From an uncultured bacterium (GTDB taxonomy: Bacteria; Patescibacteriota; Patescibacteriia; Magasanikbacterales; GWA2-37-8): a DNA stretch of 64,000 bases. A model generated the notes under the pieces. That model saw only the letters and a list, made by a program, of their open reading frames with translations. It was not told where the DNA came from and did not search any database. Positions 10,026 to 24,521 of this stretch are shown in pieces. The stretch covers positions 3,275 to 67,274 of the forward strand of contig CALCZC010000025.1 of NCBI GenBank assembly GCA_937903605.1, in the 5' to 3' direction. The translations under genes and the position numbers were made by a program. The stretch's first letter is position 1, and every line of letters starts with the position of its first letter.

Positions 10026-10057
10026 AAAAACACTTCGTTTAAAAACGAAGTGTTTTT
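10026..10057 (+). terminator. Intrinsic terminator (bidirectional-type)
   Basis: AAAAACACTTCGTTT-AA-AAACGAAGTGTTTTT perfect inverted repeat after the stop at 10009. Confidence 0.8.
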
Positions 10058-10106
10058 AATTTTTAACTGTATTATTTTCAGTTTTAGAAATCTGTGACGA
10101 CTATGA

Positions 10107-10135
10107 TTGACAAAACTCTTAAATTAAGGTACTTT
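10107..10135 (+). promoter_or_regulatory. sigma70 promoter of cassette 1
   Basis: TTGACA-17 nt-TACTTT, then SD AAGGGAG before ATG 10186. Confidence 0.65.
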
Positions 10136-10185
10136 AGATAGTCGTTCGTTTACAATTTTATAGTCATTTTATAAGGGAGTTCGTC

Positions 10186-11718
10186 ATGAACACGTTTATC
10201 GCTCAGCAATCGTTGATCTGGATCCTCCTTTGTCTTTGCCTGATTCTTTTGGCGCTTCATTTCAAAAATGCGATCAAAAAGAAGAAAGAAAAACAAAGAC
10301 AGGATTTGGCTTTGGCAGAAGCCAAGAAAGAAGAAAAGCGTATGCTGGATTTACGAGAAGTATTACCCAAGCTTTTTACCGGCGCGCAACTAGATCATTT
10401 ACGGGCTAGACATTTCATTTTCAATGTCATGACGGCCGAAGAAAGAGACACAATGGCGCAGTGGTTTGAAACTCATGTGGAAATTTTCGGAAAATTTGAT
10501 TTTGAAACAGTCATTTCTGAGGAAAAAAGACCGCTGTTGAGCTTCGATGAATTTCAAGCTCTTTTTATGGTCGTTTTTAACGAAGGTTATTTTGATGCGA
10601 ACAAATTGCCTTTTGGTGGACAGTTGGAAATGTCTCAGAAGCTCAAATGGGCACAAATCCGTTTACGCTCTTCCATGCCGTCCAAAGAAGCAGAGGATGA
10701 AATGGACCGCTTAACCAAACAGGTGCGGTTTAGCCTGGAAGATCTCAACAGAGTGCGTAAATTGGCGGTCGCTGAGTTTGAAGCTCTGCAAAAAAAATCT
10801 CTGGAATTTGACCAGGTATTGGATAGATCGGAAAAAGCGGAAAAAGAGCGCTGGGAACTGTTTGTAGATACCAGGGAATTTTTGAAAGATTGGCCGGAAA
10901 TGAAAAAGGCCCTTTCCTTAGCTCGGTCTGAATACGAAGAACATCTCAAGGAATTGCTTGGTATCAAGAAAATGGGGATAGTTCAGATTCTCAAGGATAT
11001 TGCCGGTCACACCGAGGATCTGAACAAAATCAAAAAAGCCCTCGTTGACATGGAGAAGTGGCGTAAAGATAAGGAGAGTCTTCTGGAAAATAACCTGAGC
11101 AACCATCTGAACAAGATGTTTGAGCAGGCCAAAGACGATGCTGCTTTGCAACGTAAGCAGGCTCTGGATGAAATATCCAAAGTTGTGCATCAAGAGCTTG
11201 ATAAAATGGGTGAAGAAATTGCAGAACTACGTCAGAAGTTTGAAATGGTCCCTTCCGTGGTTGAAAAAAAGAAGGAAGAAGGACAATTCAACTGGTCTGC
11301 GACTATCTATGCTTTTTTTTCCATTTGCCTCATTGTTTTCATCTGGAGAGATCTTTCCAGAGAGAATGACCAATCGATGGTGGTTTTGGATAAGATCGCT
11401 CCGGTGGTGCAAGAAAATAATCTACTTTCCGATTCTGATCCGGAGGAATTTATTACAGTAGAGGAAAACGAGATACCGCCTTTTTATTCCGTTAACGAAG
11501 AAGAAGAAACTTCTTATGTTGAAGAAAAAGAATATTTGGAAAAAGAAACTAATTTTAATGAAGAGCCGAAATTGGTTCCAGTGCCGTTGATAGAAAAAAA
11601 GATAGCAAAAAAAGTTTTGGCTTTATGTCAGGACAAGAAATGCTGTCTTGATAGGTTCGGCAAGGACACTAAGACTTGGCCGCAGGCCATAGAGTGTATG
11701 CGATCAGTAAAAAAGTGA
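10186..11718 (+). CDS. Membrane-anchored coiled-coil protein (2 TM, acidic linker, Cys-containing C-terminus)
   Basis: TM at the N-terminus and near aa 370-388; long heptad region; C-terminal LCQDKKCC...EC; SD present. Confidence 0.8.
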   Translation: MNTFIAQQSLIWILLCLCLILLALHFKNAIKKKKEKQRQDLALAEAKKEEKRMLDLREVLPKLFTGAQLDHLRARHFIFNVMTAEERDTMAQWFETHVEIFGKFDFETVISEEKRPLLSFDEFQALFMVVFNEGYFDANKLPFGGQLEMSQKLKWAQIRLRSSMPSKEAEDEMDRLTKQVRFSLEDLNRVRKLAVAEFEALQKKSLEFDQVLDRSEKAEKERWELFVDTREFLKDWPEMKKALSLARSEYEEHLKELLGIKKMGIVQILKDIAGHTEDLNKIKKALVDMEKWRKDKESLLENNLSNHLNKMFEQAKDDAALQRKQALDEISKVVHQELDKMGEEIAELRQKFEMVPSVVEKKKEEGQFNWSATIYAFFSICLIVFIWRDLSRENDQSMVVLDKIAPVVQENNLLSDSDPEEFITVEENEIPPFYSVNEEEETSYVEEKEYLEKETNFNEEPKLVPVPLIEKKIAKKVLALCQDKKCCLDRFGKDTKTWPQAIECMRSVKK

Positions 11719-11733
11719 CTATATAAATTTTAC

Positions 11734-11762
11734 AAGGTCGGCCCATAAAGCCGACCTTTTTT
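11734..11762 (+). terminator. Intrinsic terminator
   Basis: AAGGTCGGC-CCATAAA-GCCGACCTT followed by a T run. Confidence 0.85.
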
Positions 11763-11880
11763 ATTTGAGTAACATTTGGATGATAAAAAGTATTATATAT
11801 GTATAATTTAAAAATATAGGATTAAATACTCAATATTTAACTAAATTTAGCCTTAAATTAGCCAAAAAGAGTAGGGGGTA

Positions 11881-11909
11881 TTGACAAAATTGTCTATTTG
11901 TGCTATAAT
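11881..11909 (+). promoter_or_regulatory. Perfect consensus sigma70 promoter
   Basis: TTGACA-17 nt-TATAAT with extended TG; near-duplicate at 19967. Confidence 0.85.
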
Positions 11910-12145
11910 ATGTCGTTACAATCAAAAAGGATTTTGATCCACTGTGGAAGAGGGTGATCAAAAGAACTATGAAAATAACTCCTTCCCGGGAGCGTTTTTT
12001 GTTCTTAAAATAAATTTTCTTTTTAACTGCACGGTTTAAAACATAAACCTTGTTAATAAGGAGAAAATTGTTCATTAAAATTAAAGATTTCGTTTATATA
12101 GGAAGTCCAGGATATTAACAACAGGAAAACACCAGGAGGTGTACG

Positions 12146-13129
12146 ATGAAGAAGATGATGCTTTTTGTCGCGATAGTTTTCGCGATGGTTACCGTGACTG
12201 CGCAGCAGAGCGTGTATCCCCTTAATCCCAGTTCCACAATCACGGTGCAGGAATGCATCGATCTGATGAACGCTGCCAAAACCGCCCAGACCAAAACCAC
12301 CGAAATGAAAAAGAAAGTGGAAGGGGTGGTCGCTGCTGTCAAAAAGGGTAACAAGACTCCGGAAGATGGGTCCAAAGAGATCTCCAAAGAGATCAAGGAG
12401 AACCCCGAAGTTCCTCTGGAAAGCAGAAAGGCGGCTAACGAAGTTGCCAGGAAAGTCCTTTATAAAAAGGATCTGACCGAAGCAATGGAAGCTTTCGAGA
12501 CCACTTTCAAGGCGGACCTCGCCAGATTGGAGGAGAAAATCTCCGGTCTTGAGGAAAGGATGGCAAAGCTTGAAGAAAGCGATGCTAAACAGAATGAACG
12601 CCTTGGCAATGTCGAGGAGGTGGTCGCAGATCATGAAAACCGGCTGGATAACCTGGAAGAGGGAATATTCTCCGGTTACTTCGGTGCAAAGTTTCTCACT
12701 TCTTCGGTGTTCGATACTGCCGGTGGTGGCGAACTGGGTATGACCGTGAAAATCGGCAAGCTCAATGGCCCGTTCAAAGCCGACTTCGGCGCAACCCTGT
12801 ATGGTTCGGAGATCAAAAATCTCATAGGAATCGAAGGCAGGGGCATAATCACCTGGATGAGCGACGATTTCAAATTCGTCAAGCTCGGCCTTGGTGGTAT
12901 GGGCGGTGGCATGTTTGATGTCAATAACGCCGGAAGAGTTTCCACTTCCTACGGCGGTGGGCAGTTCGAGATTTCGGCCGTTTACAAACGGTACGAGCTC
13001 TATGCCGATGTCAACCTCGGCGCAAGGGACATGCGCAAGATAAGCGGCCAGCACGAAACCAGTTTCTACTGGGGAGTGATAACTGGCGTCCGCATAAACT
13101 TCGGCGGTCCGTTCGAGACCGTCAAGTAA
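12146..13129 (+). CDS. Secreted coiled-coil protein with a C-terminal predicted outer-membrane-type beta-barrel
   Basis: SD AGGAGGT; Sec signal peptide; coiled coil (LARLEEKISGLEERMAKLEE); about 8 amphipathic Gly/aromatic strands ending FYWGVITGVRINF. Confidence 0.7.
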   Translation: MKKMMLFVAIVFAMVTVTAQQSVYPLNPSSTITVQECIDLMNAAKTAQTKTTEMKKKVEGVVAAVKKGNKTPEDGSKEISKEIKENPEVPLESRKAANEVARKVLYKKDLTEAMEAFETTFKADLARLEEKISGLEERMAKLEESDAKQNERLGNVEEVVADHENRLDNLEEGIFSGYFGAKFLTSSVFDTAGGGELGMTVKIGKLNGPFKADFGATLYGSEIKNLIGIEGRGIITWMSDDFKFVKLGLGGMGGGMFDVNNAGRVSTSYGGGQFEISAVYKRYELYADVNLGARDMRKISGQHETSFYWGVITGVRINFGGPFETVK

Positions 13130-13227
13130 AACGAATATCTTTAAAACGGGAGGGTGAGTTCTTCACCCTCCTATCCCAATCCTTGTCAATAACTTGTTTG
13201 TTGACAGAGTAATGGGAAACCATTAAC

Positions 13228-13243
13228 TGCTCTTTGAAAATTT
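13228..13243 (+). promoter_or_regulatory. boxA-like (Nus factor) element
   Basis: TGCTCTTTGAAAATTT matches 10/12 of E. coli rrn boxA TGCTCTTTAACA; lies in the 5' leader after two hairpins. Confidence 0.6.
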
Positions 13244-13322
13244 GCTGTAGAAAAAACCCTTTGAGAGGGTTTATATATAGAGGTTACAGGTAGTTTCATA
13301 ACAAACATCTTTGGAGGATGCC

Positions 13323-14174
13323 ATGAAGAACGTACTTTTTTTCTTTGCCGTCGTGTGTGCGATGGTTTTCACCGTTTCCTGCGCCAACTGCACTTACAAT
13401 GAGAAGCTCGGCGCGTGTATCGAAGACATGCCCGAAGAGACCGATGACGCCAAGACCGACATCGACGACGCCAAGACCGACGACGAAAAGTCGGACACCG
13501 ACACTGTCGAAGGTCCCAAACAGGGTGAAGAAGGCGGAAAATGCTTCGCCAACAAGTCCTGTATGGAAGGGCTGGAATGCATTAAGCTCAATGAAGACTA
13601 TATCTGCATCGTAGCAGAAGAAGTCGATGACGACCTCGCAAGCGACGACGAAGAGACCGACGACGAAACCAGCGATGATGACGCAGTCGATCCCGACCTT
13701 GGAAAAGAAGGTCATGGCTGTCTTCCGAACGGAACCTGCAACGAAGGTCTCGTATGTGACCAGGCTTCCGAGAACGAAACCGATGTCTGCGTAAAAGCGG
13801 TCGGCGTAGTCGGAGATAAGGACGGCTCGTGTAAGCCCGATCGGACTTGTAACACAACCTCACTGGTTTGTTACCGTGAAGACTTCGTCTGTCATAATAT
13901 GCCGACCGTCGGCACACGCACCGTTTGCTGGTCGCGTGAACTCAATACCTCACCGGTGCAGGATTCCTGCTCGAAAGAAGGGGGCATCGCTCCCGCGGTA
14001 TTTGAGTATGTCAGCGGGACAAAAACCCCGAACTGCGAAGGACTCGTGAATGTGGACCCGGAGTTCGAATGCGTGCGTATCAACGCAACGGTCGAAACCT
14101 TCCGTAATTCCACACCGGCCGAGCGAGATGACCTCGCCCTCACTTCGTCGTTCTACCTTCCGCCCATAAATTAA
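13323..14174 (+). CDS. Cys-rich/Asp-rich lipoprotein (paralogue A)
   Basis: SD TGGAGG; signal peptide ending TVS-C; three G.EG..C..N..C..GL.C modules separated by acidic linkers. Confidence 0.85.
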   Translation: MKNVLFFFAVVCAMVFTVSCANCTYNEKLGACIEDMPEETDDAKTDIDDAKTDDEKSDTDTVEGPKQGEEGGKCFANKSCMEGLECIKLNEDYICIVAEEVDDDLASDDEETDDETSDDDAVDPDLGKEGHGCLPNGTCNEGLVCDQASENETDVCVKAVGVVGDKDGSCKPDRTCNTTSLVCYREDFVCHNMPTVGTRTVCWSRELNTSPVQDSCSKEGGIAPAVFEYVSGTKTPNCEGLVNVDPEFECVRINATVETFRNSTPAERDDLALTSSFYLPPIN

Positions 14175-14220
14175 CGGCGGACCCCAAGTGCTTTTGGGGT
14201 GACTACAGCAACTTTTACTT

Positions 14221-14250
14221 GACAGCCGATGCACCGGCTGTCTTTTTTTT
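14221..14250 (+). terminator. Intrinsic terminator
   Basis: GACAGCCG-ATGCAC-CGGCTGTC followed by T8. Confidence 0.85.
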
Positions 14251-14282
14251 ATCAATTTTCCCCTCCTTTTGATAAGAGGAGG

Positions 14283-14302
14283 CCTGCCTGCCGGTAGGCA
14301 GG
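14283..14302. repeat. Short GC-rich palindrome (REP-like)
   Basis: CCTGCCTGCCGGTAGGCAGG, intergenic near-perfect palindrome. Confidence 0.55.
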
Positions 14303-14331
14303 ACTAGGGTGGAGTCAAGTGGAAAAAATAG

Positions 14332-14360
14332 TTGACAAATTATAAATTTTATGCTACATT
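14332..14360 (+). promoter_or_regulatory. sigma70 promoter
   Basis: TTGACA-17 nt-TACATT with extended TG. Confidence 0.75.
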
Positions 14361-14439
14361 TAGCTGTTAAAAGATTTTCCTTTTTCGGCGCTTTTAATGG
14401 GTTTTTTGTATTTATTTTGAAAGTGCAAAAAAGAGGGAA

Positions 14440-14455
14440 AGCTCTTTGAAAAATT
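14440..14455 (+). promoter_or_regulatory. boxA-like element
   Basis: AGCTCTTTGAAAAATT in the leader between promoter and SD. Confidence 0.6.
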
Positions 14456-14525
14456 AGCAACTTTAGATAGGGAGAACAGAATGAAAAACGGTTTTAACAA
14501 CAGCAACTGCACGGAGGTGCACGCA

Positions 14526-17500
14526 ATGAAGAACTACTTCGTTTTTTTCATCGCCGTAGCGATGATGCTCATGCTTGCTTGTGAAAGCAGCAAAGACGGT
14601 CGTGATGGTCGTGATGGTCGCGATGGTATCGCGGGCCAGGACGGCCAGGATGGTCAGGACGGGGAAGATGCTCCGGTTTCGCTTTCGCGCTCCGAAAAAG
14701 CGAGTGAAGAAGAAGCGCGTGAGAACTGTGGCGAGGACATCGTCAACGCCAATTGGATCTGTACCGGCGTGGACGAAAATGAAAATGGCTATCTCGACGA
14801 TTATGAATTCGCCGAATGCCATATTGAATGCGCGGGTGCGCCCGGTCACAGTGCATTGGTTGCAAAAACCGATACCACACAAACCGAGTGTCCCAACGGC
14901 GGATTTCATTTTCTTTCCGGTATTGACACCAACGACAATGGCGAGCTTGATGCCGAAGAAGTTTTGGTTGATGAGCTCGTTTGTAACGGCGTTGATGGTC
15001 AGGATGGTATCGGTGATGTAGTTCGTACCAGTACGGAACCCGCCGGCACCAACTGCCAAAACGGTGGTCAGAAAATCGAGCGTGGTCGCGATCTCAACCG
15101 CAACGGTCAGCTGGATGTGTCCGAGATTACCAGTACAAATTATGTATGCAATGGTATTGACGGTACGAACGGGCATGATGCGAGGACTCGCACCAGTATT
15201 ACCAATGATCCGACATTGTGTGCCAGCGGTTCCGGAGTTATTTTTGAATCCGGTACTGACAACAATGACAACGGAGTGCTCGATGATCCGGAGGTTTCCA
15301 CTACGGATGTTATCTGTGATGGTGCCAACGGTAAGACCACACGCATGATCGTGGCCACAGAACCCGCAGGAACAAACTGCGCAGTCGGCGGTTTTTCCGT
15401 CGTTTATGGCGTAGATGAAAATGACAATGGACTTCTCGATACTACCGAGCAGTCGCCCGCACAGTACATCTGTCATGGACAAGACGGTTACAGTGTCGTG
15501 ATGAGAGTCACGGCTGATATTGCTGTTTGTTCATGGAACGGATACAGGTTGCAGTTCGGTCAGGATCTTGATCGTAATGGTATCTTGGATACCGGCGAGG
15601 AAACATCCGACTTTTATATCTGCAACGGATCCGATGGTCTCATTTCCCGCATCAATATTTCCGACGAGCCCAATGGTGAAAACTGTGCGGCCAGCGGAAA
15701 AAGAATAGATACGGGGATGGACATCAATCGCAACGGCCTGCTTGACAGCACCGAGATTACCACGACCAACTATGTCTGCAACGGTGTGCAGGGTCCGCAG
15801 GGAGTTCGGGGATACAATTCGCTTTCGCGGATAACTCCGGATCTTGGCGGAACAGTCTGCACCTGGGGTGGATATTATTTGGAAGTCGGCACAGACATCA
15901 ATGAAGACTGGATCTTGGATCTGGATGAAGTTGGTCACAGTGCTTATGTCTGCAACGGTATAGATGGTAAGACCTGCAGTTCCATACTCAACGATGAACC
16001 CATCGGTACGAACTGTGCTTACGGCGGAAAAATCGTGTATTCCGGTTGTGACGATGATTACAACGGTGTGCTGGACCTCTACGAGGTCGTTCATACCGAC
16101 TACATCTGTAACGGCGCCACCGGTGCGATAGGTCCTGCCGGGTACAATGCCCTGACCAATATGCAAATAGCGGTCAGCGGTTGTCCCAATGGCGGATATG
16201 TTTTCACTGCCGGCACAGACGCCAATGATGATCAGATCCTTGATCTCACGGAAGTGACGGTCACGAATCTTATCTGTCATGGTGTCAATGGCCAGGATGG
16301 TTATACCTATCGTGTGCAGATGGTTGATGAACCCGTGAGTACAAATTGTGTTCAAGGTGGCAAGGCTATCAGTGGAGGTATAGACAGCAACCGTAATGGT
16401 GTGCTCGATCCTTCCGAAGCCGATGATCCGGTTTACATCTGTCATGGTGCAAACGGACTGCCCGGCGCCAATGGTCAAAACGGTCTAAGTATGGCTTTTG
16501 TCATCAGCGTGGCGAGCATTTCCGAATGCCCGGCCGGTGGTGAGAAGCTGGAGCTTGGATTGGATATTGATGCCAGTGGCGTGCTTGAGCTCGTTGAAGT
16601 TACTAGCACGGTTCTCATCTGCAATGGTCAGAACGGTCAGAACGGTAAAAATTCTTTGACCACTATGACCGTGGAGCCCATAGGTACAAACTGCGCCAAA
16701 GGCGGCCATCTCTTGTTGGTCGGTATTGACGACAATGAAAACGGTATTTTGGATTCCAGTGAAGCCGGGGTTCCGCAGTATGTCTGCCATGGTTTGGATG
16801 GCATCAATGGTGCCAACGGGACCAACGGCCACAATGCTTTGGCGATGGTTACCACATCCACTTTGGGATTCTGTCCCAATGGCGGATCCGAACTGCGGAC
16901 CGGAACTGATCTCAATGATGATGGGGTTTTGAATGCGGGCGAAGTTTCTTCGTTTGCGCTTATCTGTAACGGCCAGAACGGCGCCAATGGTGCCGACGGT
17001 TACAGCTCCAGAACTACGATGATCAGTGAGCCCGCAGGTGCCAATTGCCAGGCCGGAGGATTTTTTATTATCTCCGGTACTGATACCAACAACAACGGCG
17101 CGTTGGATGTTACGGAAATTGAATATTCCGGATACATCTGCAACGGCATAAATGGGAATCCCGGCAGTAATGCCGTAACCCGTGGCCGTCTCGCGCTCGT
17201 TTCTGAATGTCTTAATGGCGGAAGCATCGTGGAAACCGGTACGGATAGTAACAACAATGCTGTACTGGACGATGTGGAAGTCATGACGATAAGTTATCTC
17301 TGCAACGGTGATCCGGGAACAAATGGCCAGGATGGCATTTCCTATCGTGTTATCATCACCAATGAATCCGCTGGAATTAATTGTCAGGCCGGTGGAAAAA
17401 AATTGGAAGGTGGTTACGATACTAACAGGAATAATATCCTGGATCCAGGCGAAATCGTAATGACCGAGTATGTCTGCAACGGCATGGACGGTCAGGATGG

Positions 17501-18296
17501 TCAGGATGGTGTGAACGCACTGCTGCGTATGGAAGATGAACCCGCAGGGGTAAATTGCGAACGCGGTGGCAAAGCAATCCTTTCCGGTTACGATCTGGAT
17601 AGTGATAATTACCTGGATGACACCGAAGTGCTTGCACAGAGTTATCTCTGCAACGCCAAGATCGTTTACTCGGTTGGCGCAGAAAGCACCTATGGTACAT
17701 TCACGGCCTATACAGCCAGCACGGTTTCGTATTGCAAAATATATGGTACGACTCTTGAAGCCGTTGCTTACATTAGCGATGTGGGTAATGCGGCGGTAGT
17801 GGCTACGGATTGGGAAGCGGTGGAGTGTTTCAACACTTCCCATGTCCGGGTGAACATCATTTCTTGTTCCGGTAGCGGTTTTGCGCAGAGCAATGTCGGT
17901 GTGTGCACTTATGACGGATCCGTGTATGCGCGTGGCGGTTTGGGGCAGACTTGTAAGCCCAATCGTGCGTGTGATAGCGGTGTCTGCCGACTTCTGGACA
18001 CGACCTGCATTACCAAACCCTCTCCGGGAGCGGGCGAATACGCTTTTTATTGGGACGGCACTATGAACTCCGGCGGAACCACTTGCGAAAGCTATGGTGG
18101 TAACTACTACTCACCGGTGGTGGGTCAGTGGGATATTTCCGGAGTGCCCAACTGTAATGCCGATCTCGGTGATCCGGTTAGGGGACTCAAGTTCTACACC
18201 GGGTGCATCACGGATCAGAGTGATTTTGATACTCTTGATCCTGCCACTCGTCATTGCACCGGTCCGGCTTATGCCACGGTGCTGGCGCCCTGGTAA
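14526..18296 (+). CDS. Large repetitive lipoprotein: 18 Cys-bracketed DxNxNGxLD Ca-binding-type repeats with collagen-like linkers (paralogue B)
   Basis: SD CGGAGGT; lipobox MLA-C; repeats (EPxGxN)CxxGG...GxDxNxNGxLDxxE...xCNG; GxxGxx linkers; C-terminal domain shared with neighbouring genes. Confidence 0.9.
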   Translation: MKNYFVFFIAVAMMLMLACESSKDGRDGRDGRDGIAGQDGQDGQDGEDAPVSLSRSEKASEEEARENCGEDIVNANWICTGVDENENGYLDDYEFAECHIECAGAPGHSALVAKTDTTQTECPNGGFHFLSGIDTNDNGELDAEEVLVDELVCNGVDGQDGIGDVVRTSTEPAGTNCQNGGQKIERGRDLNRNGQLDVSEITSTNYVCNGIDGTNGHDARTRTSITNDPTLCASGSGVIFESGTDNNDNGVLDDPEVSTTDVICDGANGKTTRMIVATEPAGTNCAVGGFSVVYGVDENDNGLLDTTEQSPAQYICHGQDGYSVVMRVTADIAVCSWNGYRLQFGQDLDRNGILDTGEETSDFYICNGSDGLISRINISDEPNGENCAASGKRIDTGMDINRNGLLDSTEITTTNYVCNGVQGPQGVRGYNSLSRITPDLGGTVCTWGGYYLEVGTDINEDWILDLDEVGHSAYVCNGIDGKTCSSILNDEPIGTNCAYGGKIVYSGCDDDYNGVLDLYEVVHTDYICNGATGAIGPAGYNALTNMQIAVSGCPNGGYVFTAGTDANDDQILDLTEVTVTNLICHGVNGQDGYTYRVQMVDEPVSTNCVQGGKAISGGIDSNRNGVLDPSEADDPVYICHGANGLPGANGQNGLSMAFVISVASISECPAGGEKLELGLDIDASGVLELVEVTSTVLICNGQNGQNGKNSLTTMTVEPIGTNCAKGGHLLLVGIDDNENGILDSSEAGVPQYVCHGLDGINGANGTNGHNALAMVTTSTLGFCPNGGSELRTGTDLNDDGVLNAGEVSSFALICNGQNGANGADGYSSRTTMISEPAGANCQAGGFFIISGTDTNNNGALDVTEIEYSGYICNGINGNPGSNAVTRGRLALVSECLNGGSIVETGTDSNNNAVLDDVEVMTISYLCNGDPGTNGQDGISYRVIITNESAGINCQAGGKKLEGGYDTNRNNILDPGEIVMTEYVCNGMDGQDGQDGVNALLRMEDEPAGVNCERGGKAILSGYDLDSDNYLDDTEVLAQSYLCNAKIVYSVGAESTYGTFTAYTASTVSYCKIYGTTLEAVAYISDVGNAAVVATDWEAVECFNTSHVRVNIISCSGSGFAQSNVGVCTYDGSVYARGGLGQTCKPNRACDSGVCRLLDTTCITKPSPGAGEYAFYWDGTMNSGGTTCESYGGNYYSPVVGQWDISGVPNCNADLGDPVRGLKFYTGCITDQSDFDTLDPATRHCTGPAYATVLAPW

Positions 18297-18314
18297 GTTG
18301 CTTTAGTTCATTTC

Positions 18315-18342
18315 AGGCGGTCCTTCTAGGACCGCCTTTTTT
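18315..18342 (+). terminator. Intrinsic terminator
   Basis: AGGCGGTCC-TTCTA-GGACCGCCT followed by a T run. Confidence 0.9.
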
Positions 18343-18353
18343 ATTATAGGTAT

Positions 18354-18409
18354 TTGACATACATTGATGAGTGATATATAATGGTTTGTTAAAAGTTCTT
18401 TGATATTTT
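18354..18409 (+). promoter_or_regulatory. Consensus sigma70 promoter followed by a boxA-like element
   Basis: TTGACA(18354)-17 nt-TATAAT(18377); AGTTCTTTGATATTTT at 18394. Confidence 0.8.
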
Positions 18410-18447
18410 AGACAGATAATAAACCATAATTCATGATGGAGGTTGTC

Positions 18448-19854
18448 ATGAAAAGTGTAGTTTTGACCGCGGTTGCGATCTTTTTTGTTTCCATGTTTTT
18501 CATTTCCGGATGTGCCAACTGTAATTATTCCGAACAGTTGGGAGCGTGTCTTGAAGAGACACCGGATAATGGTGTTGACAAAGAAAATAATGACAATTTT
18601 GTTTCAGACAAAGAAATGACTGATGAAGAAGCCAACAATTTGCCAAAAATCGGTGAAGAAGGCGGAGGGTGTTATCCAAACGATACTTGTGACTCCGGTT
18701 TGAAGTGTATCAAGATCAATGAGAAGATGATGTGTATCAAATTGTCCGAAGAAAAAGATGCAGAGGTTGAAGTTCAGGATTTTGCTGTTGAAAACGAATT
18801 ACCTGATAATGATACTGCATCAAACACTGAGAATGATTCTTACTATCAAGATGACACTGAATCATCTGATTTTGAAAATGAGATACCGGATGTTGATCAT
18901 GTTATCAAATGTGATAAACCGGTTGTAGCCGTAGCCTTCAAAGGACCGCAAGGTTATTGTGGTGGCCAATTTCCTTTTGGCCGTTGGCATGACAATGCGG
19001 TTGTTAAAACCGGACAAGAAGTGACCATAGTAGTTGCCAACCCGTTGGGGACTATTCCGACAGGATACAATCTTGCCAATGAGCTCAAGATAATGGTAAA
19101 AATTTCCCAAGATACGGATTATCTCAACAGTAACTTATCTAATGGATTTTTTATTGGAAACAACGCGCTGACCATGGGTCTTACACCGGGTGGTGGTAAC
19201 AAAACGGAAATGAAATTGATTTTTGCAAAAAAATCATCTTCCATTATGGAGCCACAGAAAGTGATTGTCTCCATAGTTCAAACCACCGGTTATGACGGAT
19301 ATGTTGCCCTTGAGAAAGATAAGTTCGGCGGAGTCTATTGTAGCCCCCATGGAACCTGTCCCGTTTTTAGCGAAGTGATTTTGTGGGTAGTCGACTCTTC
19401 CGATTCCATTCAATGGGGTGAACTGAATCAGAGATGTTTGCCGGATAAAAGATGCTCGCGAAATTATTCCGACCAGTGTGTATCCGGTGACGATCAAGAA
19501 TACTTTTGTACCCAATATGGAAATACTTGTGTTTCCAAACCAAAATTGGAAGTGGATCAGGAATATCGCTATTGGGATGCTACCATAGATTGGTATACAG
19601 GTTCGAACTCCGTTTATAACGGTAAAACCACCTGTGAAAGCAAAAGTTCGAGCAATCGTTTTTGTTATCCACCCGATCCATGGACTTGGAATAACGATAG
19701 TGTTTTACCTGCCTGCCAATGCAGTGACAACTCCTTGTTTAAGCCGGCTGGTGCAATGGGATGCGTTGTTGATAAAGGAAGTCGGTGGGTAGATTGTAAA
19801 AGCGATATTTTTTGGAAATACAATTTTTACTCACCCTCCTATATCTGTCAGTAG
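18448..19854 (+). CDS. Cys-rich/Asp-rich lipoprotein (paralogue C)
   Basis: SD TGGAGGT; lipobox ISG-C; N-terminal CANCNYSEQLGAC shared with paralogue A; GEEGGGCYPNDTCDSGLKC module. Confidence 0.85.
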   Translation: MKSVVLTAVAIFFVSMFFISGCANCNYSEQLGACLEETPDNGVDKENNDNFVSDKEMTDEEANNLPKIGEEGGGCYPNDTCDSGLKCIKINEKMMCIKLSEEKDAEVEVQDFAVENELPDNDTASNTENDSYYQDDTESSDFENEIPDVDHVIKCDKPVVAVAFKGPQGYCGGQFPFGRWHDNAVVKTGQEVTIVVANPLGTIPTGYNLANELKIMVKISQDTDYLNSNLSNGFFIGNNALTMGLTPGGGNKTEMKLIFAKKSSSIMEPQKVIVSIVQTTGYDGYVALEKDKFGGVYCSPHGTCPVFSEVILWVVDSSDSIQWGELNQRCLPDKRCSRNYSDQCVSGDDQEYFCTQYGNTCVSKPKLEVDQEYRYWDATIDWYTGSNSVYNGKTTCESKSSSNRFCYPPDPWTWNNDSVLPACQCSDNSLFKPAGAMGCVVDKGSRWVDCKSDIFWKYNFYSPSYICQ

Positions 19855-19874
19855 TTGATAATATAGTTCTTTTT

Positions 19875-19902
19875 AGGTGGCTCTTCTAGAGCCACCTTTT
19901 TT
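19875..19902 (+). terminator. Intrinsic terminator
   Basis: AGGTGGCTC-TTCTA-GAGCCACCT followed by a T run. Confidence 0.9.
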
Positions 19903-19966
19903 ATTTAGTAAAAAATGGCTTAAATAAGCAAAATTTATTTTGGCTAAGATTAGCTAAGTTTACCCC

Positions 19967-19995
19967 TTGACAAAATCGTCAAAATGTGCTATAAT
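19967..19995 (+). promoter_or_regulatory. Perfect consensus sigma70 promoter
   Basis: TTGACA-17 nt-TATAAT with extended TG; paralogous to the promoter at 11881. Confidence 0.85.
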
Positions 19996-20201
19996 ATCAC
20001 GTTACAATCAAAAAGCGTTGGAGAGAGCGCGGAAGTAATAAAAGGCCAAATTCCGTATCTCTCTTTATCAAAAGAGAGTTTTGTTTTTCTAGCCCATTAT
20101 CCCATCAACTAGATTGATTGGATAAAGGAGAGAAAAAATAAAAATCAGGTTCCTTACAATATAGAGTTAGAGTCCAAAAAACCAATAAGTGGAGGAAAAC
20201 C

Positions 20202-21362
20202 ATGAAAAAGCTCATCACCACGGTTGTGGTCGCCTTCTTTTTCGTCGCCTGTGGCGGCAGCAATGTCAACAATGTCAATGACGAATTCGTCGGCAACGAC
20301 GAAAGCATCAATGATGAAATCACCGACAACGAGACTCCCGATGAGATCGTCAGCGATGACGAGATTAACTGGGATGAAGTCGGCCATGAAGGGGAGCCAT
20401 GCTTCCCGAACAATACTTGTCACGAAGGGCTTAAATGCCGTGACGGCAAGTGTGTGGACGACGGTGGCATGTCCGATACCGGTAAACTCAATCATGAGTG
20501 TTACCCGGACGGTTCATGCAGATCAGACGACATGATCTGTGAGGAAGGAATTTGCGTCGAGCGTAAAGCCGATGCGGATGAAACTCTCACGGATAATGAA
20601 GTCGCGGATGATGTTGTGACTGATGACGAAACTTCGGATGAAATCATTTCCGATGAGGAAGTGGTGGATGAAGAAGTGATGACTGACAACGACATCGTTG
20701 ACAATCCCGTGGTCGACAATGACACGGCCGAAGATCCTCTGACCGGGATTGAAGCGGGACATCCCTGCTACCCCAACAACACCTGCGATAGTATCAAAGG
20801 TCTTGTATGTCAGAACGGTCTCTGTCAGTATCCTGGCACCACGCCGGATGTTGATACTGCGACTCCGGACGAGGACGAAGTCCTTGTCGATGATGAGACA
20901 GTCACTGATTCCGACGTTGCTTCTGATGAAGAAGTGACAGACGATGATGTGCTTCTCACAGAAGAAGAACCGGTGGTTGATAATGATACCACTGAAGTTC
21001 CGGATCAGGACAATCTGCCGTCCGACATCGGAAACAAGGGGCAGAGTTGTTACCCCAACCACACCTGTAATGGTGTGCTGGTCTGTATCGTTGGCACTGA
21101 AATATGTGCTGATGAACCGATTGCTGTCCTCGGACAGTATGAGGGCAGATGTTGGGACTACAAGGATCCTCTTACAGGAAAAACCACCTGTGAAAAAGAG
21201 GGCTGGTACTGGTCTCCTGCTATCTGGGCCGAGACTTCGGACCAATTCCCGCTTTGTATCGGTAGCAGCACCAGACGTCCGTATCTTGCGGAATGTCAGT
21301 TGCAAACCAACAGCGGAGAGCCTCGTAGTTCGGTGTGGTATAAATATCCGACCACGCCGTAA
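20202..21362 (+). CDS. Cys-rich/Asp-rich lipoprotein (paralogue D)
   Basis: SD TGGAGG; lipobox FVA-C; four G..G..C(Y/F)P(N/D)..C...L.C modules separated by D/E/T/V-rich linkers. Confidence 0.85.
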   Translation: MKKLITTVVVAFFFVACGGSNVNNVNDEFVGNDESINDEITDNETPDEIVSDDEINWDEVGHEGEPCFPNNTCHEGLKCRDGKCVDDGGMSDTGKLNHECYPDGSCRSDDMICEEGICVERKADADETLTDNEVADDVVTDDETSDEIISDEEVVDEEVMTDNDIVDNPVVDNDTAEDPLTGIEAGHPCYPNNTCDSIKGLVCQNGLCQYPGTTPDVDTATPDEDEVLVDDETVTDSDVASDEEVTDDDVLLTEEEPVVDNDTTEVPDQDNLPSDIGNKGQSCYPNHTCNGVLVCIVGTEICADEPIAVLGQYEGRCWDYKDPLTGKTTCEKEGWYWSPAIWAETSDQFPLCIGSSTRRPYLAECQLQTNSGEPRSSVWYKYPTTP

Positions 21363-21479
21363 ATTCTAACTCTAGGATTTAACATAATGGACCGGGCACC
21401 TGACTTTACGTCAAGGCCCCGGTCCAATCTTTATATGAGATTGTCACATTCTCTCCTGATGACGATCTCAGATAATATC

Positions 21480-21512
21480 AAAAAACCTTTCACTTTTCGT
21501 GAGGGGTTTTTT
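21480..21512 (+). terminator. Intrinsic terminator
   Basis: AAAAACCTTTCAC-TTTTC-GTGAGGGGTTTTT hairpin (with G-U pairs) plus T run. Confidence 0.7.
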
Positions 21513-21641
21513 GTTTTATAAGAGGGGAAAGTGTGATATAATATATTTAAATAATAAATTCAAAATCTCAAATCCCAAATTATTTGGAACTTGTGATTTT
21601 TAATTTGTAATTTATTTTAAATATTAATATTTAAAATCTCT

Positions 21642-22964
21642 ATGTTTATTCGAAAAATTGTTTTTTTAACGGCAGTGTTTTTATTTATGCCGTTGGTTGT
21701 TTCTGCTGAAACAACTTCTACCACGTCAACGGTAGAAACTATTGTGTTCAAGGTTTTTAACGCTGATTGTGAAAATATCTCCGAAGGCCTTTTGGCCAAT
21801 AGTTGTTATGTCAAAAAAGCCGCTGATAATCTGGATTGTTCGTATTGTGAAAAAATAAATTGGTTTGGCGGGCGTGTTTCTTGCTGTGTCGGTGTGATAA
21901 ACAGTTTCACTCGAGAGGGATTGTGTGACAATTTGACCGAAACAAAATTGAAAGAAAAATGTTTATTACATTTGGCAGTCAAAACCAAAAACGGAGCTTT
22001 GTGTAAACAAATAAAAGATAAAAATGAAAATTTTGCTTGTCGAGCTGAGATAGCCAAGCAAGCTACTGATTTGAAGCAGTGCGATAAAATGAATAAAATA
22101 GAAAAAGATTATTGCCTTTTGAAATTTGCAGAAACGCAAAAGAATGAAAAAATTTGCGCCAAAATAGGTGAACGCGGAGTTAAAAGATTTTGTTACAATA
22201 AATTGGCGGTGTTAAAAAACAATGAAAAGCTTTGTCCTTTAACTGCTAATGCGGATAAATGTTATTTGGCAGTAGCGGAAAGTAAAAAAGATGGAGCGCT
22301 TTGCGCTAAAATCAAAGACGGGTCTTTGGTTGGGTATTGTTTGGACAGAGTGGCAATAGTTAAAAAAGATTATAATGCTTGCAATTTGATAAAAGGAAAT
22401 TATAAATTTGATTGTATTTTTGATGTTGGTAAAGCAAAAGGTAGCGCCATGTCTTGTGAAAAAATAACGGATAAAGAAAAAAATTATACATGTGTTACGC
22501 ATTTTGCGACAGAACGTGAAGATTTGAGTTATTGTAATTATCTGAAAGATAAAACTAAACTTACTGCATGTACCGACGAAGTAGCAAAAACCATAAATGC
22601 CAGAGTTCAAGACGCTCAACGGATATCCGATTTAAAATCTATGCAAACGGCTTTGGAACTTTATTTTATGGATAATAATGAATATCCAGAAGGAAAAGAT
22701 ATTGTTCTTGGTGGTTCAAATGGAGTTTGTTTGATAAATACCGGAATTGAAGGAGAAAATTGGACCTGTCCGGAAAATCCGACAGTTGTTTATTTTAATA
22801 GTATTCCCGCAGACCCTATTAACACTGGTATTTATACTTATACCTATACCAAAACCTCTGGAGTCTCACCTTGTTATCATATTATTGCCAGATTTGAAAC
22901 AAATTATGGCGAATATAAGGCCGGGCCGTTTTATGTAAGTTGTGAAGGTGGAATTTTTCAGTAA
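21642..22964 (+). CDS. Secreted Cys-repeat protein with a C-terminal pilin/GspG-like domain
   Basis: Signal peptide; tandem C..I......C...A repeats; DAQRISDLKSMQTALELYF...YP and IPADP motifs of pilin/pseudopilin globular domains. Confidence 0.75.
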   Translation: MFIRKIVFLTAVFLFMPLVVSAETTSTTSTVETIVFKVFNADCENISEGLLANSCYVKKAADNLDCSYCEKINWFGGRVSCCVGVINSFTREGLCDNLTETKLKEKCLLHLAVKTKNGALCKQIKDKNENFACRAEIAKQATDLKQCDKMNKIEKDYCLLKFAETQKNEKICAKIGERGVKRFCYNKLAVLKNNEKLCPLTANADKCYLAVAESKKDGALCAKIKDGSLVGYCLDRVAIVKKDYNACNLIKGNYKFDCIFDVGKAKGSAMSCEKITDKEKNYTCVTHFATEREDLSYCNYLKDKTKLTACTDEVAKTINARVQDAQRISDLKSMQTALELYFMDNNEYPEGKDIVLGGSNGVCLINTGIEGENWTCPENPTVVYFNSIPADPINTGIYTYTYTKTSGVSPCYHIIARFETNYGEYKAGPFYVSCEGGIFQ

Positions 22965-23054
22965 AATTTAAGTTATACCTTTGAAAACTCGGCTTCGTAA
23001 AAAGAGCCGAATTTTCTTGATTTTTAGCGAAAAATGTGCTATAATTTAGATAGT

Positions 23055-24521
23055 ATGACAAATCTTTGGGAAACATACAAAGAAGAGTTATGGTGGTCGG
23101 TTTTGGCTATATTTACGATGTCTGGCTATCTTTTATATTACTTGAATATAGGCCAAAATCTTTGGATTTATGCTTTTGCTGTTTTGGTGGTCGGATTGGC
23201 TATTTTGAAATTTCCTCAAATAGGATTATATGTTATATTTTTTTGTACTTTGATTTTTGAGCGACATTTTACTTTACAAACGTTGGTATTTAGAGAAATT
23301 GAATACAAATTATACCCACTTGATATTGTTATTCTTATCATAATTCTTTCAATTTTTCTGAAATTTTTTGCTCAACACGATAAAGAAGAAAATATAATCT
23401 TTAATAAATTTGATTATCCGATATTTCTCTTCGGTTTATCCGCTACTTTATCCTTTATTTATGCGATGTTGATAAGAGTTGATCCGGCAACAGCTTTCGG
23501 GGCTTATAAAAATTATTTTCTTTACGCTATCATTTATTTTATAGCTCTTGTTGTTTTAAAAACAAAAGAGGATTGGGAAAAAATGATGTTCTGGATAACT
23601 CTGGGAGCAGGTTTGATGTTTTATTTTCTGGGTTATGGATTGTTGACCGGACATGGATTATGGAGTGAATATACACCGCTTTCTACCGCTGGTGAAAGAT
23701 TGATAGCCGGGACGCACGCCTTTTATTTTATGATTTTTGGTTTTTGGTTGACAGCTCTTTATTTTTGGAAAAAAGAAGAAAAAAAATTATTTGGAAAAAA
23801 AGAAATATTGATAGCTATTTTTCTTATATTAGCAGCCCTGCTAGTTTCTCTGGTACGTCATTTATGGTTAGCGTTGATTTTGATTTTGCTGCTGTGGTTG
23901 ATCTTTTTACCTTCAAACAAAAAAAAGATTCTATACAATATATTTACCAGAACTATTTTGGTTGCTGTTACAGCATCAGTCGTTTTTATTTGGCTTTATG
24001 GTTTATTTTCCGGAGATTTTCCTTCTTTCATAAACAAATATATTTATGTTTTTAAGGAAAGAGCCAGTATAGTCAATGTGGTCAATTTACAAGACGAGAG
24101 CTTCCGTTGGCGTATTTCTGCTTGGGTGGCAGGATTATCTTTGTGGCAAACTTCGCCTGTCTGGGGAATTGGTTTAGGTCATCAAATAGTAGGATATGAC
24201 GAACTTTTCTTTTTTGATATTCCGCCGCGCGATCTCCATAATAATTATTTAGGTATTTTTATTCAGATGGGTATTCTGGGAATTTTAGCGGTAATTTATT
24301 GGTTTATTTATTTATTAAATAGTTTACAAAAAATCTGGTTGTCCGTAAGAGAAAAAGGGGATTTTAACACTCAATTATTTTTTATTTGGGGAAACACGGT
24401 GATATTGTTTATGATCGTATTTTTCATCTCTGTTTACTGGGACATAAATCTTTTTGTTATTTGGTGGTGGCTGTCTTTGGCGGCTATAAGATTTTTGGCA
24501 AAAGAAACCGAAAATATATGA
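23055..24521 (+). CDS. O-antigen ligase/Wzy-family membrane protein
   Basis: Many TMs; SFRWRISAW, PVWGIGLG and DLHNNYLGIFIQMGILG motifs. Confidence 0.85.
   Translation: MTNLWETYKEELWWSVLAIFTMSGYLLYYLNIGQNLWIYAFAVLVVGLAILKFPQIGLYVIFFCTLIFERHFTLQTLVFREIEYKLYPLDIVILIIILSIFLKFFAQHDKEENIIFNKFDYPIFLFGLSATLSFIYAMLIRVDPATAFGAYKNYFLYAIIYFIALVVLKTKEDWEKMMFWITLGAGLMFYFLGYGLLTGHGLWSEYTPLSTAGERLIAGTHAFYFMIFGFWLTALYFWKKEEKKLFGKKEILIAIFLILAALLVSLVRHLWLALILILLLWLIFLPSNKKKILYNIFTRTILVAVTASVVFIWLYGLFSGDFPSFINKYIYVFKERASIVNVVNLQDESFRWRISAWVAGLSLWQTSPVWGIGLGHQIVGYDELFFFDIPPRDLHNNYLGIFIQMGILGILAVIYWFIYLLNSLQKIWLSVREKGDFNTQLFFIWGNTVILFMIVFFISVYWDINLFVIWWWLSLAAIRFLAKETENI

Follow-up and report, generated by a model that had tools for sequence, protein, structure and literature searches.

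A predicted outer-membrane-type barrel and its unusual message in a patescibacterium without detectable outer-membrane machinery

How does a bacterium that seems to possess a single membrane come to encode a protein that is predicted to belong in an outer membrane, and for whom is that protein made? The question is raised by a gene at positions 12146..13129 of the forward strand in a window of 64,000 nucleotides, the whole stretch of DNA analyzed here, which belongs to an uncultured patescibacterium. This locus joins a protein needing a membrane that the cell seems to lack with a message built unlike the cell's own. It bears on the ways in which Patescibacteria draw on their hosts and on the cargo of their relaxase-less type IV system. 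When a cell that has no BAM encodes a barrel of outer-membrane type, the protein must end up in someone's membrane. A sequence-only reading of the locus had proposed the outer membrane of a diderm host as a possible destination, where the protein might act, for example, as a docking receptor or a tether.

The genome under study (G000) is 1.13 Mb long and 99.8% complete; among named relatives, Ca. Magasanikbacteria (L009) is the closest. The literature describes Patescibacteria as monoderm (PMC11665869, PMC8871954). The earlier proposal presupposed a genome devoid of its own outer-membrane biogenesis machinery, and the searches agree with it: BamA/Omp85 found no match in this genome or in any of the 61 genomes of the family, and LptD, LpxC, LolA and TamB found none in this genome, while the control searches matched in diderms. 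The accompanying statement that such barrels need BamA is too strong, since OmpA and similar small barrels fold into lipid in vitro without it. The genome encodes Lgt, LspA, SecA, SecY and NusB, rpsJ (S10) was found by motif, and the tRNA set includes Gln-CUG, Lys-CUU and Glu-CUC. Of a type IV system, the genome has a VirB4-like ATPase and 15 matches to T4SS pilins, and an array of about eleven T4SS-pilin-like genes lies on contig C28 (6899-14597); most patescibacterial T4SS clusters are reported to be without relaxase (PMC12102498). Two contigs of the bin stand apart. C10 (L013) has 36 kb at 27.5% GC, carries five tRNAs and a divergent SSU rRNA, and resembles a mitochondrial contaminant, so its SSU was rejected as the 16S of this organism; C16 (116 kb) carries many Shine-Dalgarno (SD)-led genes of phage-like look.

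The gene encodes 327 amino acids, with a GC of 0.51 and a GC3 of 0.62 against a genome mean GC3 of 0.31, and all eight peptides quoted in the sequence-only reading are present in this reading frame. A longer antisense frame (12053-13054, reverse strand) was rejected as a shadow because homologues and the SD site support the forward frame. A Sec-type signal peptide, predicted by eye, occupies residues 1-19 (12146..12202) and is composed of MKK, a hydrophobic stretch and V-T-A19; with the cleavage site read by eye, A19 is invariant in 10 type-A homologues. It is followed by a predicted three-helix bundle and a long coiled-coil helix (residues 34-172; 12245..12661), a region common to type-B alleles, and the best heptad phase of the long helix (111-172) has 13 of 18 a/d positions hydrophobic. 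The predicted eight-stranded barrel of outer-membrane type spans residues 175-319 (12668..13102). Signal peptide, helical stalk and eight strands, as seen in the first reading, are thus confirmed as a prediction. This allele ends in RINF-GGPFETVK, that is Phe319 plus an eight-residue tail, and a terminal Phe is found in 11 of 15 homologous sequences. A 10-bp hairpin without a clear U-run lies 3' of the stop codon (13148..13172). The coding region of the barrel folds more strongly as RNA than synonymous shuffles do, and some of the GC bias may therefore stem from RNA structure.

AlphaFold2, run on the 10-row type-A alignment, places helices at residues 34-105, one long helix at 111-172 and eight strands at 175-319, with a mean pLDDT of 72, barrel blocks at 68-83 and a pTM of 0.43. 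A search of 48,161 solved chains with this model returned NspA (1p4t) as the top match (Z 15.8, rmsd 2.7, 139 aligned residues), followed by Legionella porin III (15.6), OprF (15.1), the Thermus protein 3dzm (15.1), OmpA (14.5) and OmpW (14.4). The best barrels that are not membrane proteins were two designed ones (12.9 and 11.9), Cap15 (11.2) and agroavidin (9.1). Foldseek gave OmpW as its best match (E 2.3e-6). One face of the strands carries no charged and 34 hydrophobic residues out of 42, the opposite face is charged at 12 of 36 positions, and the split is present in all 10 type-A rows, a post hoc observation inasmuch as the faces were assigned by eye. At the sequence level this protein has no match to an outer-membrane protein family in Pfam or among PDB sequences; in Pfam at E 0.1, none of the 15 family members matched such a family among the 25 families listed out of 26. 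In the ESM Atlas it falls near OMP_b-brl clusters at 0.88, which is a lead only. The protein is therefore a predicted eight-stranded membrane-type barrel, closest in the model to NspA, OprF and OmpA. A soluble beta-sandwich, named beforehand as the outcome that would contradict the first reading, did not emerge from the model, the structure searches or the face polarity.

How does this prediction compare with barrels already known? NspA (1p4t), the N-terminal domain of OprF/OmpA (4rlc, 3nb3) and OmpW (2f1t) resemble it in the predicted eight-stranded fold (Z 14-16), and small outer-membrane barrels are also alike in having a signal peptide and a polar inside with a non-polar outside. For the C-terminal aromatic beta-signal the picture is mixed: most alleles end in Phe, and in this one the eight-residue tail follows Phe319. 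It differs from them in its 9-15% identity, in the lack of a Pfam match, in the helical stalk of 150 residues before the barrel and in the genome without a BamA match. Trimeric autotransporter adhesins (type Vc) combine a signal peptide, a coiled-coil stalk and a C-terminal membrane anchor, with four strands per chain and the stalk directed outward; in contrast, eight strands per chain are predicted here and no YadA_anchor match was found. The OmpM/SlpA tethers of diderm Terrabacteria likewise have an N-terminal periplasmic stalk and a C-terminal outer-membrane barrel, but OmpM is described as a trimeric porin with an SLH domain, whereas the present protein has no SLH match and a small barrel predicted to have eight strands (PMC10628300).

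Homologues are few. Five close proteins were found, and a search of 1.84 billion representatives returned 11 matches, several of which are coiled-coil noise, and identified no donor or non-CPR relative of the barrel. Full-length matches occur in three of the six genomes of the genus, the other three, all fragmented, having none; among 401 genomes of the class, only G000 and G003 gave a strong match. Five weak partial matches outside the genus in those 401 genomes (E 5e-5 to 1e-3) and one in the genus search were taken as chance, and viral contigs gave one weak coiled-coil match.

The gene opens a run of five genes for secreted proteins (12146-21362), and it is found at the same site in two sister species, G002 and G003, and in the metagenome contig L011. 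This synteny rules out mis-assembly or contamination, so the gene is native. In G002 and G003 the same stalk is joined to a second, non-alignable barrel type (type B): the profiles of types A and B align over residues 1-174 only, and the type-B barrel is also modelled as eight strands, with an NspA match at Z 15.9. From allele to allele, signal peptide, stalk and barrel occur in shuffled combinations, and both of the unrelated barrel sequences mostly end in Phe; exchange of the barrel domain would be in keeping with selection acting on the exposed portion. Across the three species the alleles are 27-49% identical, and the reading frames are intact in all full-length alleles. Between the G000 and G002 alleles 51 of 97 comparable synonymous sites differ (core 0.34), and both hold a GC3 near 0.6. 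The difference to L011 is 0.17, 0.27 and 0.11 for island genes against 0.34-0.35 for flanking core genes, which argues that the island recombines between populations; persistence of the codon bias may accordingly reflect repeated import. There is a GC step at the island, where the spacers are AT-rich (0.30-0.41) while the coding parts have 0.41-0.54 GC. Just before the island, window positions 4841-10009 encode a 1722-residue protein with native codon use and no Pfam match, whose same-site relatives share about 250 residues.

The message has a leader of 235 nt. It starts from a perfect sigma-70-type promoter (11881..11909; 12/12, extended -10), and near-identical promoters precede other genes of the class described below. 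Two conserved hairpins follow, with two-sided changes in 10 of 39 pairs (n=4): the first (11932..11963) is conserved with compensatory changes in four loci, two of whose rows are nearly identical, and the second (12014..12068) lies directly 5' of a boxA-like element, in what would be a boxB-like position. Between them is a short terminator-like hairpin with a T-run (11979..12002), a possible attenuator. The boxA-like element (12070..12080) has one mismatch to the published consensus GYTCTTTAANA. The SD site is enclosed in a 5-bp hairpin (12129..12142), with an 8-nt match at 12134-12141. Each of the three barrel genes has its SD inside a hairpin, an effect that is weak across the class (z below -1.65 in 15 of 66). 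Such a hairpin fits a folded regulatory leader, and a purely regulatory reading would predict both the hairpin and the strong folding of the coding RNA. Rfam gave no match across 10000-22000. The region 11910-12100, with its conserved purine-rich loop and internal terminator-like site, may be an attenuator or a small RNA.

The neighbouring genes are built in the same manner. Upstream, a gene encoding 510 residues without a Pfam match (10186..11718, forward strand, as are all the following) has promoter, boxA and SD and is syntenic in G002 and G003. Downstream come a Cys- and Asp-rich lipobox protein (13323..14174; boxA and SD, GC3 0.62), a protein with 17 DUF7151 repeats and a lipoprotein-like N-terminus (14526..18296; promoter, boxA and SD, GC3 0.52), and two further lipobox proteins (18448..19854, with promoter, relaxed boxA and SD, GC3 0.38; 20202..21362, with promoter, boxA and SD, GC3 0.54). 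The same promoter-boxA block precedes scattered genes on other contigs. The barrel gene belongs to a class of about 30-60 genes that have their own promoter, an rRNA-type boxA, a strong SD and foreign codons.

The class was delimited on open reading frames of at least 100 codons called by our own script. The G000 counts rest on 771 genes in 939 kb, from 8 of its 32 contigs; small contigs were set aside, as were C10, which resembles a mitochondrion, and C16, which resembles a phage, and the relatives were scanned in part (G002, 834 kb; G003, 434 kb; G024 and G053, 400 kb each). Counts of boxA use the published consensus (10.1101/091223) with at most one mismatch; a pattern that we had derived ourselves by inspecting these leaders amounts to a circular test inside the genus, so the published-consensus figures are preferred. 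On this basis boxA precedes 23 of 76 SD genes and 13 of 657 non-SD genes in G000 (1 of 76 on the reverse strand), 13 of 54 against 4 of 578 in G002 and 15 of 41 against 9 of 307 in G003, with start codons picked for the highest SD score, a choice that inflates the SD counts. With the same consensus the enrichment is not significant in G024 (2/38 vs 3/285) or G053 (1/19 vs 2/318). Among 215 promoter-bearing genes boxA is found in 22 of 45 SD genes and in 2 of 156 non-SD genes, and none of the nine housekeeping genes found by motif has an SD in either G000 or G002.

The codon use of the class is equally distinct. In five island genes CAG accounts for 0.74 of Gln codons, against 0.00 in seven ribosomal-operon genes, and TTA stands at 0.02 against 0.30; in the three genomes, the barrel gene is the fourth-worst fit to core codon use among 771 genes, the fourth-worst among 665 and the worst among 374. 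Class genes are lineage-restricted, as 2 of 34 match parts of distant genomes against 391 of 737 others, and the other 346 lineage-restricted genes have an ordinary GC3 (0.308). The lipobox proteins form two sets, nine with SD and a GC3 of 0.38-0.62 and eight without SD and a GC3 of 0.24-0.34. A looser list holds 63 candidates, of which 52 were scanned against Pfam (five had been scanned earlier, two were judged mis-called and four had no locus): 15 of the 52 had matches, including ThyX, NDK, PurA, H+-PPase and ankyrin repeats, and 37 had none. The class thus includes cytoplasmic enzymes without signal peptides, namely ThyX, NDK and PurA. In G000 and G002 the gene furthest from native codon use encodes a 152-residue orphan without a Pfam match (L126:777-1232; C25:72777-73235 of G000), with a GC3 of 0.86 here and of 0.70-0.81 in G002 and G003, where it is 75-78% conserved. 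Three paralogous SD-led lipoproteins (L120:17011-19829 and L121:1600-2121; GC3 0.40-0.45) stand about 2.3 kb apart with long spacers.

The 11-nt boxA consensus is the one reported for the leader of E. coli suhB and for Nus-factor autoregulation, within about 130 nt of the start codon; the same source gives 0-7 boxA mRNA sites per gammaproteobacterial genome, against dozens of genes here (10.1101/091223). Unlike those of E. coli, the boxA genes described here are lineage-restricted and coupled to an SD and foreign codons, in a genome without a Rho match; since Rho found no match in G000, boxA is not needed against a Rho of its own. In G024, nusB has a boxA directly before its SD (C1 23722-24183), matching the known Nus autoregulation, and there is none at nusB of G000 or G003.

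Which ribosome reads these SD sites? The only SSU match in G000 looks mitochondrial and its own 16S was not assembled, so the congener G002 was used; it has a canonical anti-SD. Together with the tRNAs of G000 for the island codons, this makes self-expression possible. About half of the Parcubacteria are reported to be without an anti-SD (PMC9297842), and such lineages allow a test of the reader. The strict pattern boxA-gap-GGAG-gap-ATG was found in 50 of 151 genomes of the phylum (107 matches, among them three double counts of one site); with a scrambled boxA as control, 14 of 151 genomes gave 14 matches. In G587, 13 strict sites lie at C1 24847-38700 and 519539-525971, six of them within 14 kb, which makes this genome well suited to a study of the class. 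The 3' end of the 16S was examined in 50 of 108 genomes with a match and was readable in 42: the anti-SD is absent in G604, G580 and G616, and one genome has a variant. A looser pattern has one match across these four anti-SD-variant genomes, in G616.

In G604 (340 of about 600 kb covered, 318 genes), the only 16S match is without CCUCC. Among its 48 highest-GC3 genes an SD at proper spacing precedes 14, against 3 and 4 at control offsets, and among the other 270 genes 11, against 7 and 14, which is chance level. BoxA precedes 4 of 25 SD genes against 10 of 293 (p 0.017), and four such genes are on the same contig as the anti-SD-less 16S. In anti-SD-less G580, of which 135 of about 600 kb were covered, no such class was found. 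The pattern in G604 supports a foreign reader of the SD genes, on one genome of the two examined.

The gene is also covered by RNA. Contigs of 95-100% identity cover it in four of four RNA runs from four studies. The contigs speak to presence only, DNA carry-over is possible, and the runs were picked using 10000-19900. In those four runs, genes 10186-11718 and 21642-24521 have almost no RNA cover. The rpsL-fusA-tuf-S10 control region is dominated by other organisms at 85% likeness, so no ranking of expression is claimed; in run X13, tuf-like pieces at 92-96% are similar in depth to the barrel.

Start signals and codon use of the barrel gene differ sharply from those of housekeeping genes, and it is therefore likely that a host is to read the gene and install its product. 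In the reading that we put forward, at a little under an even chance, the message is made for host ribosomes, and the Sec and BAM systems of the host would place the barrel in its outer membrane, leaving the stalk in the periplasm. The sequence would begin with what is observed here, an RNA-covered gene in a signal-marked class distinct from housekeeping genes. In E. coli, boxA in the 5' UTR of suhB represses translation, even if moved away from the SD (10.1101/091223); by analogy, boxA-bound NusB/S10 may keep the message off the parasite's own ribosomes. RNA (or DNA) would then enter the host, with the relaxase-less type IV system as a candidate conduit, and the host would translate the protein and insert the barrel. 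As a guess, barrel and neighbouring lipoproteins might mark or reinforce the attachment site or exclude competitors, as Lom and Bor of phage lambda might suggest.

The outer membrane of a putative host, as first proposed, thus stays the most likely destination, given the predicted fold and the machinery not found in the cell itself; the main evidence, which the earlier proposal did not contain, comes from codon use and from the signals for expression, both in the gene and throughout its class. The role assigned to the stalk fares differently. An eight-stranded barrel has its two termini on the periplasmic side, so that the stalk would be directed inward, leaving just the short loops to face the parasite: an outward tether is contradicted, and a docking receptor would have to work by these short loops, not by the stalk. 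More broadly, Patescibacteria may keep a second gene set, marked by boxA leader, SD and codons like those of the host, and its messages would pass into the host cell to be translated there in a phage-like manner, a generalisation to which we give somewhat less than an even chance. The set would span envelope proteins that the host alone could install (barrel and lipoproteins) and the nucleotide enzymes ThyX, NDK and PurA.

Alternatively, the parasite itself might translate the gene as part of an attachment-stage regulon switched by boxA and SD, export the protein by its own Sec and hand it to the periplasm and BAM of the host at a contact site or in vesicles. The destination would be the one first proposed, and the anti-SD of the congener, the full tRNA set, SecA/SecY and NusB agree with self-made protein. 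We know of no chaperone route across two envelopes. Moreover, such a hand-over leaves unexplained a codon use opposite to that of the cell's own highly expressed genes, the SD genes of the anti-SD-less G604 and the presence in the class of cytoplasmic enzymes without signal peptides, and we consider it unlikely, even though a different patescibacterium, living on a diderm host, reportedly shows tight contact and vesicles (10.1101/2024.03.08.584096). The barrel could also reside in the parasite's own envelope, as an unrecognised outer layer or by BAM-independent insertion in the single membrane, the stalk then serving as a spacer. In its favour, the genome encodes Lgt and LspA, Pfam models could miss divergent insertases, and the architecture recalls OmpM-type tethers (PMC10628300). 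Nevertheless, a home in the own envelope is quite unlikely given that BamA, TamB, LptD, LpxC and LolA have no match, that a family found only in this genus among 401 class genomes is too narrow for a core envelope part, that the other lipobox proteins of the cell (without SD, GC3 0.24-0.34) do not resemble the class lipoproteins and that Patescibacteria are described as monoderm (PMC11665869).

The signals could instead be those of a donor, the island being imported diderm DNA of little use that is refreshed by gene flow. The GC step, the mosaic alleles with their low divergence to L011 and the patchy presence in three of six genus genomes point in this direction, but the promoter-boxA block in the AT-rich spacers recurs before genes dispersed over other contigs, the site is the same in three species though the alleles are only 27-49% identical, frames are intact in all full-length alleles, RNA covers the gene, and the 1.84 billion representatives, with 11 matches, yielded no donor homologue; idle imported DNA is thus distinctly improbable. 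Highly improbable is a C-terminal domain that needs no membrane and forms, at the end of a secreted stalk, a soluble barrel or one of S-layer type. It would account for the lack of a sequence-level match to an outer-membrane protein family, for the middling confidence of the model (pTM 0.43) and for an allele without terminal Phe, yet the non-polar outer and charged inner faces recur in 10 of 10 rows, membrane barrels top both structure searches with natural soluble barrels at least 4 Z units lower, and both unrelated barrel types mostly end in Phe.

A precedent for expression of a parasite's envelope proteins by its host is offered by phage lambda, whose Lom (an eight-stranded barrel) and Bor lipoprotein sit in the host envelope and which uses boxA-containing nut sites. 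The proposed case would work likewise, with a parasite-encoded barrel and lipoproteins read by host ribosomes; it differs in that the parasite is a cell with its own ribosomes, that there is no Ail/Lom family match and that host expression is deduced. In the open-access literature we found no account of outer-membrane barrels, mRNA boxA sites or host-translated genes in Patescibacteria, and no description of a cellular bacterial parasite programming its host with its own messages, which is what would follow if the host makes and installs the barrel. If so, the barrel would directly indicate that the host is diderm, and the boxA-SD-codon signature would list host-directed genes and help to predict hosts from sequence, the codon use of the set pointing to host identity. 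Were one of the rival readings to hold, the locus would still imply BAM-independent barrel biogenesis or hand-over of protein between cells.

Searches for the host gave ESM Atlas leads under 0.9 only for the DUF7151 protein, one weak record by tblastn against plasmids and, for homologues of one class lipoprotein, close matches that carry no organism label. The runs containing this DNA come from sludge and wastewater. In G053, where the core GC3 is 0.42, two lipoprotein-like genes led by boxA and SD (C1 215042-217693 and 395947-397179) have a GC3 of 0.76 and 0.91, and these would fit a high-GC host.
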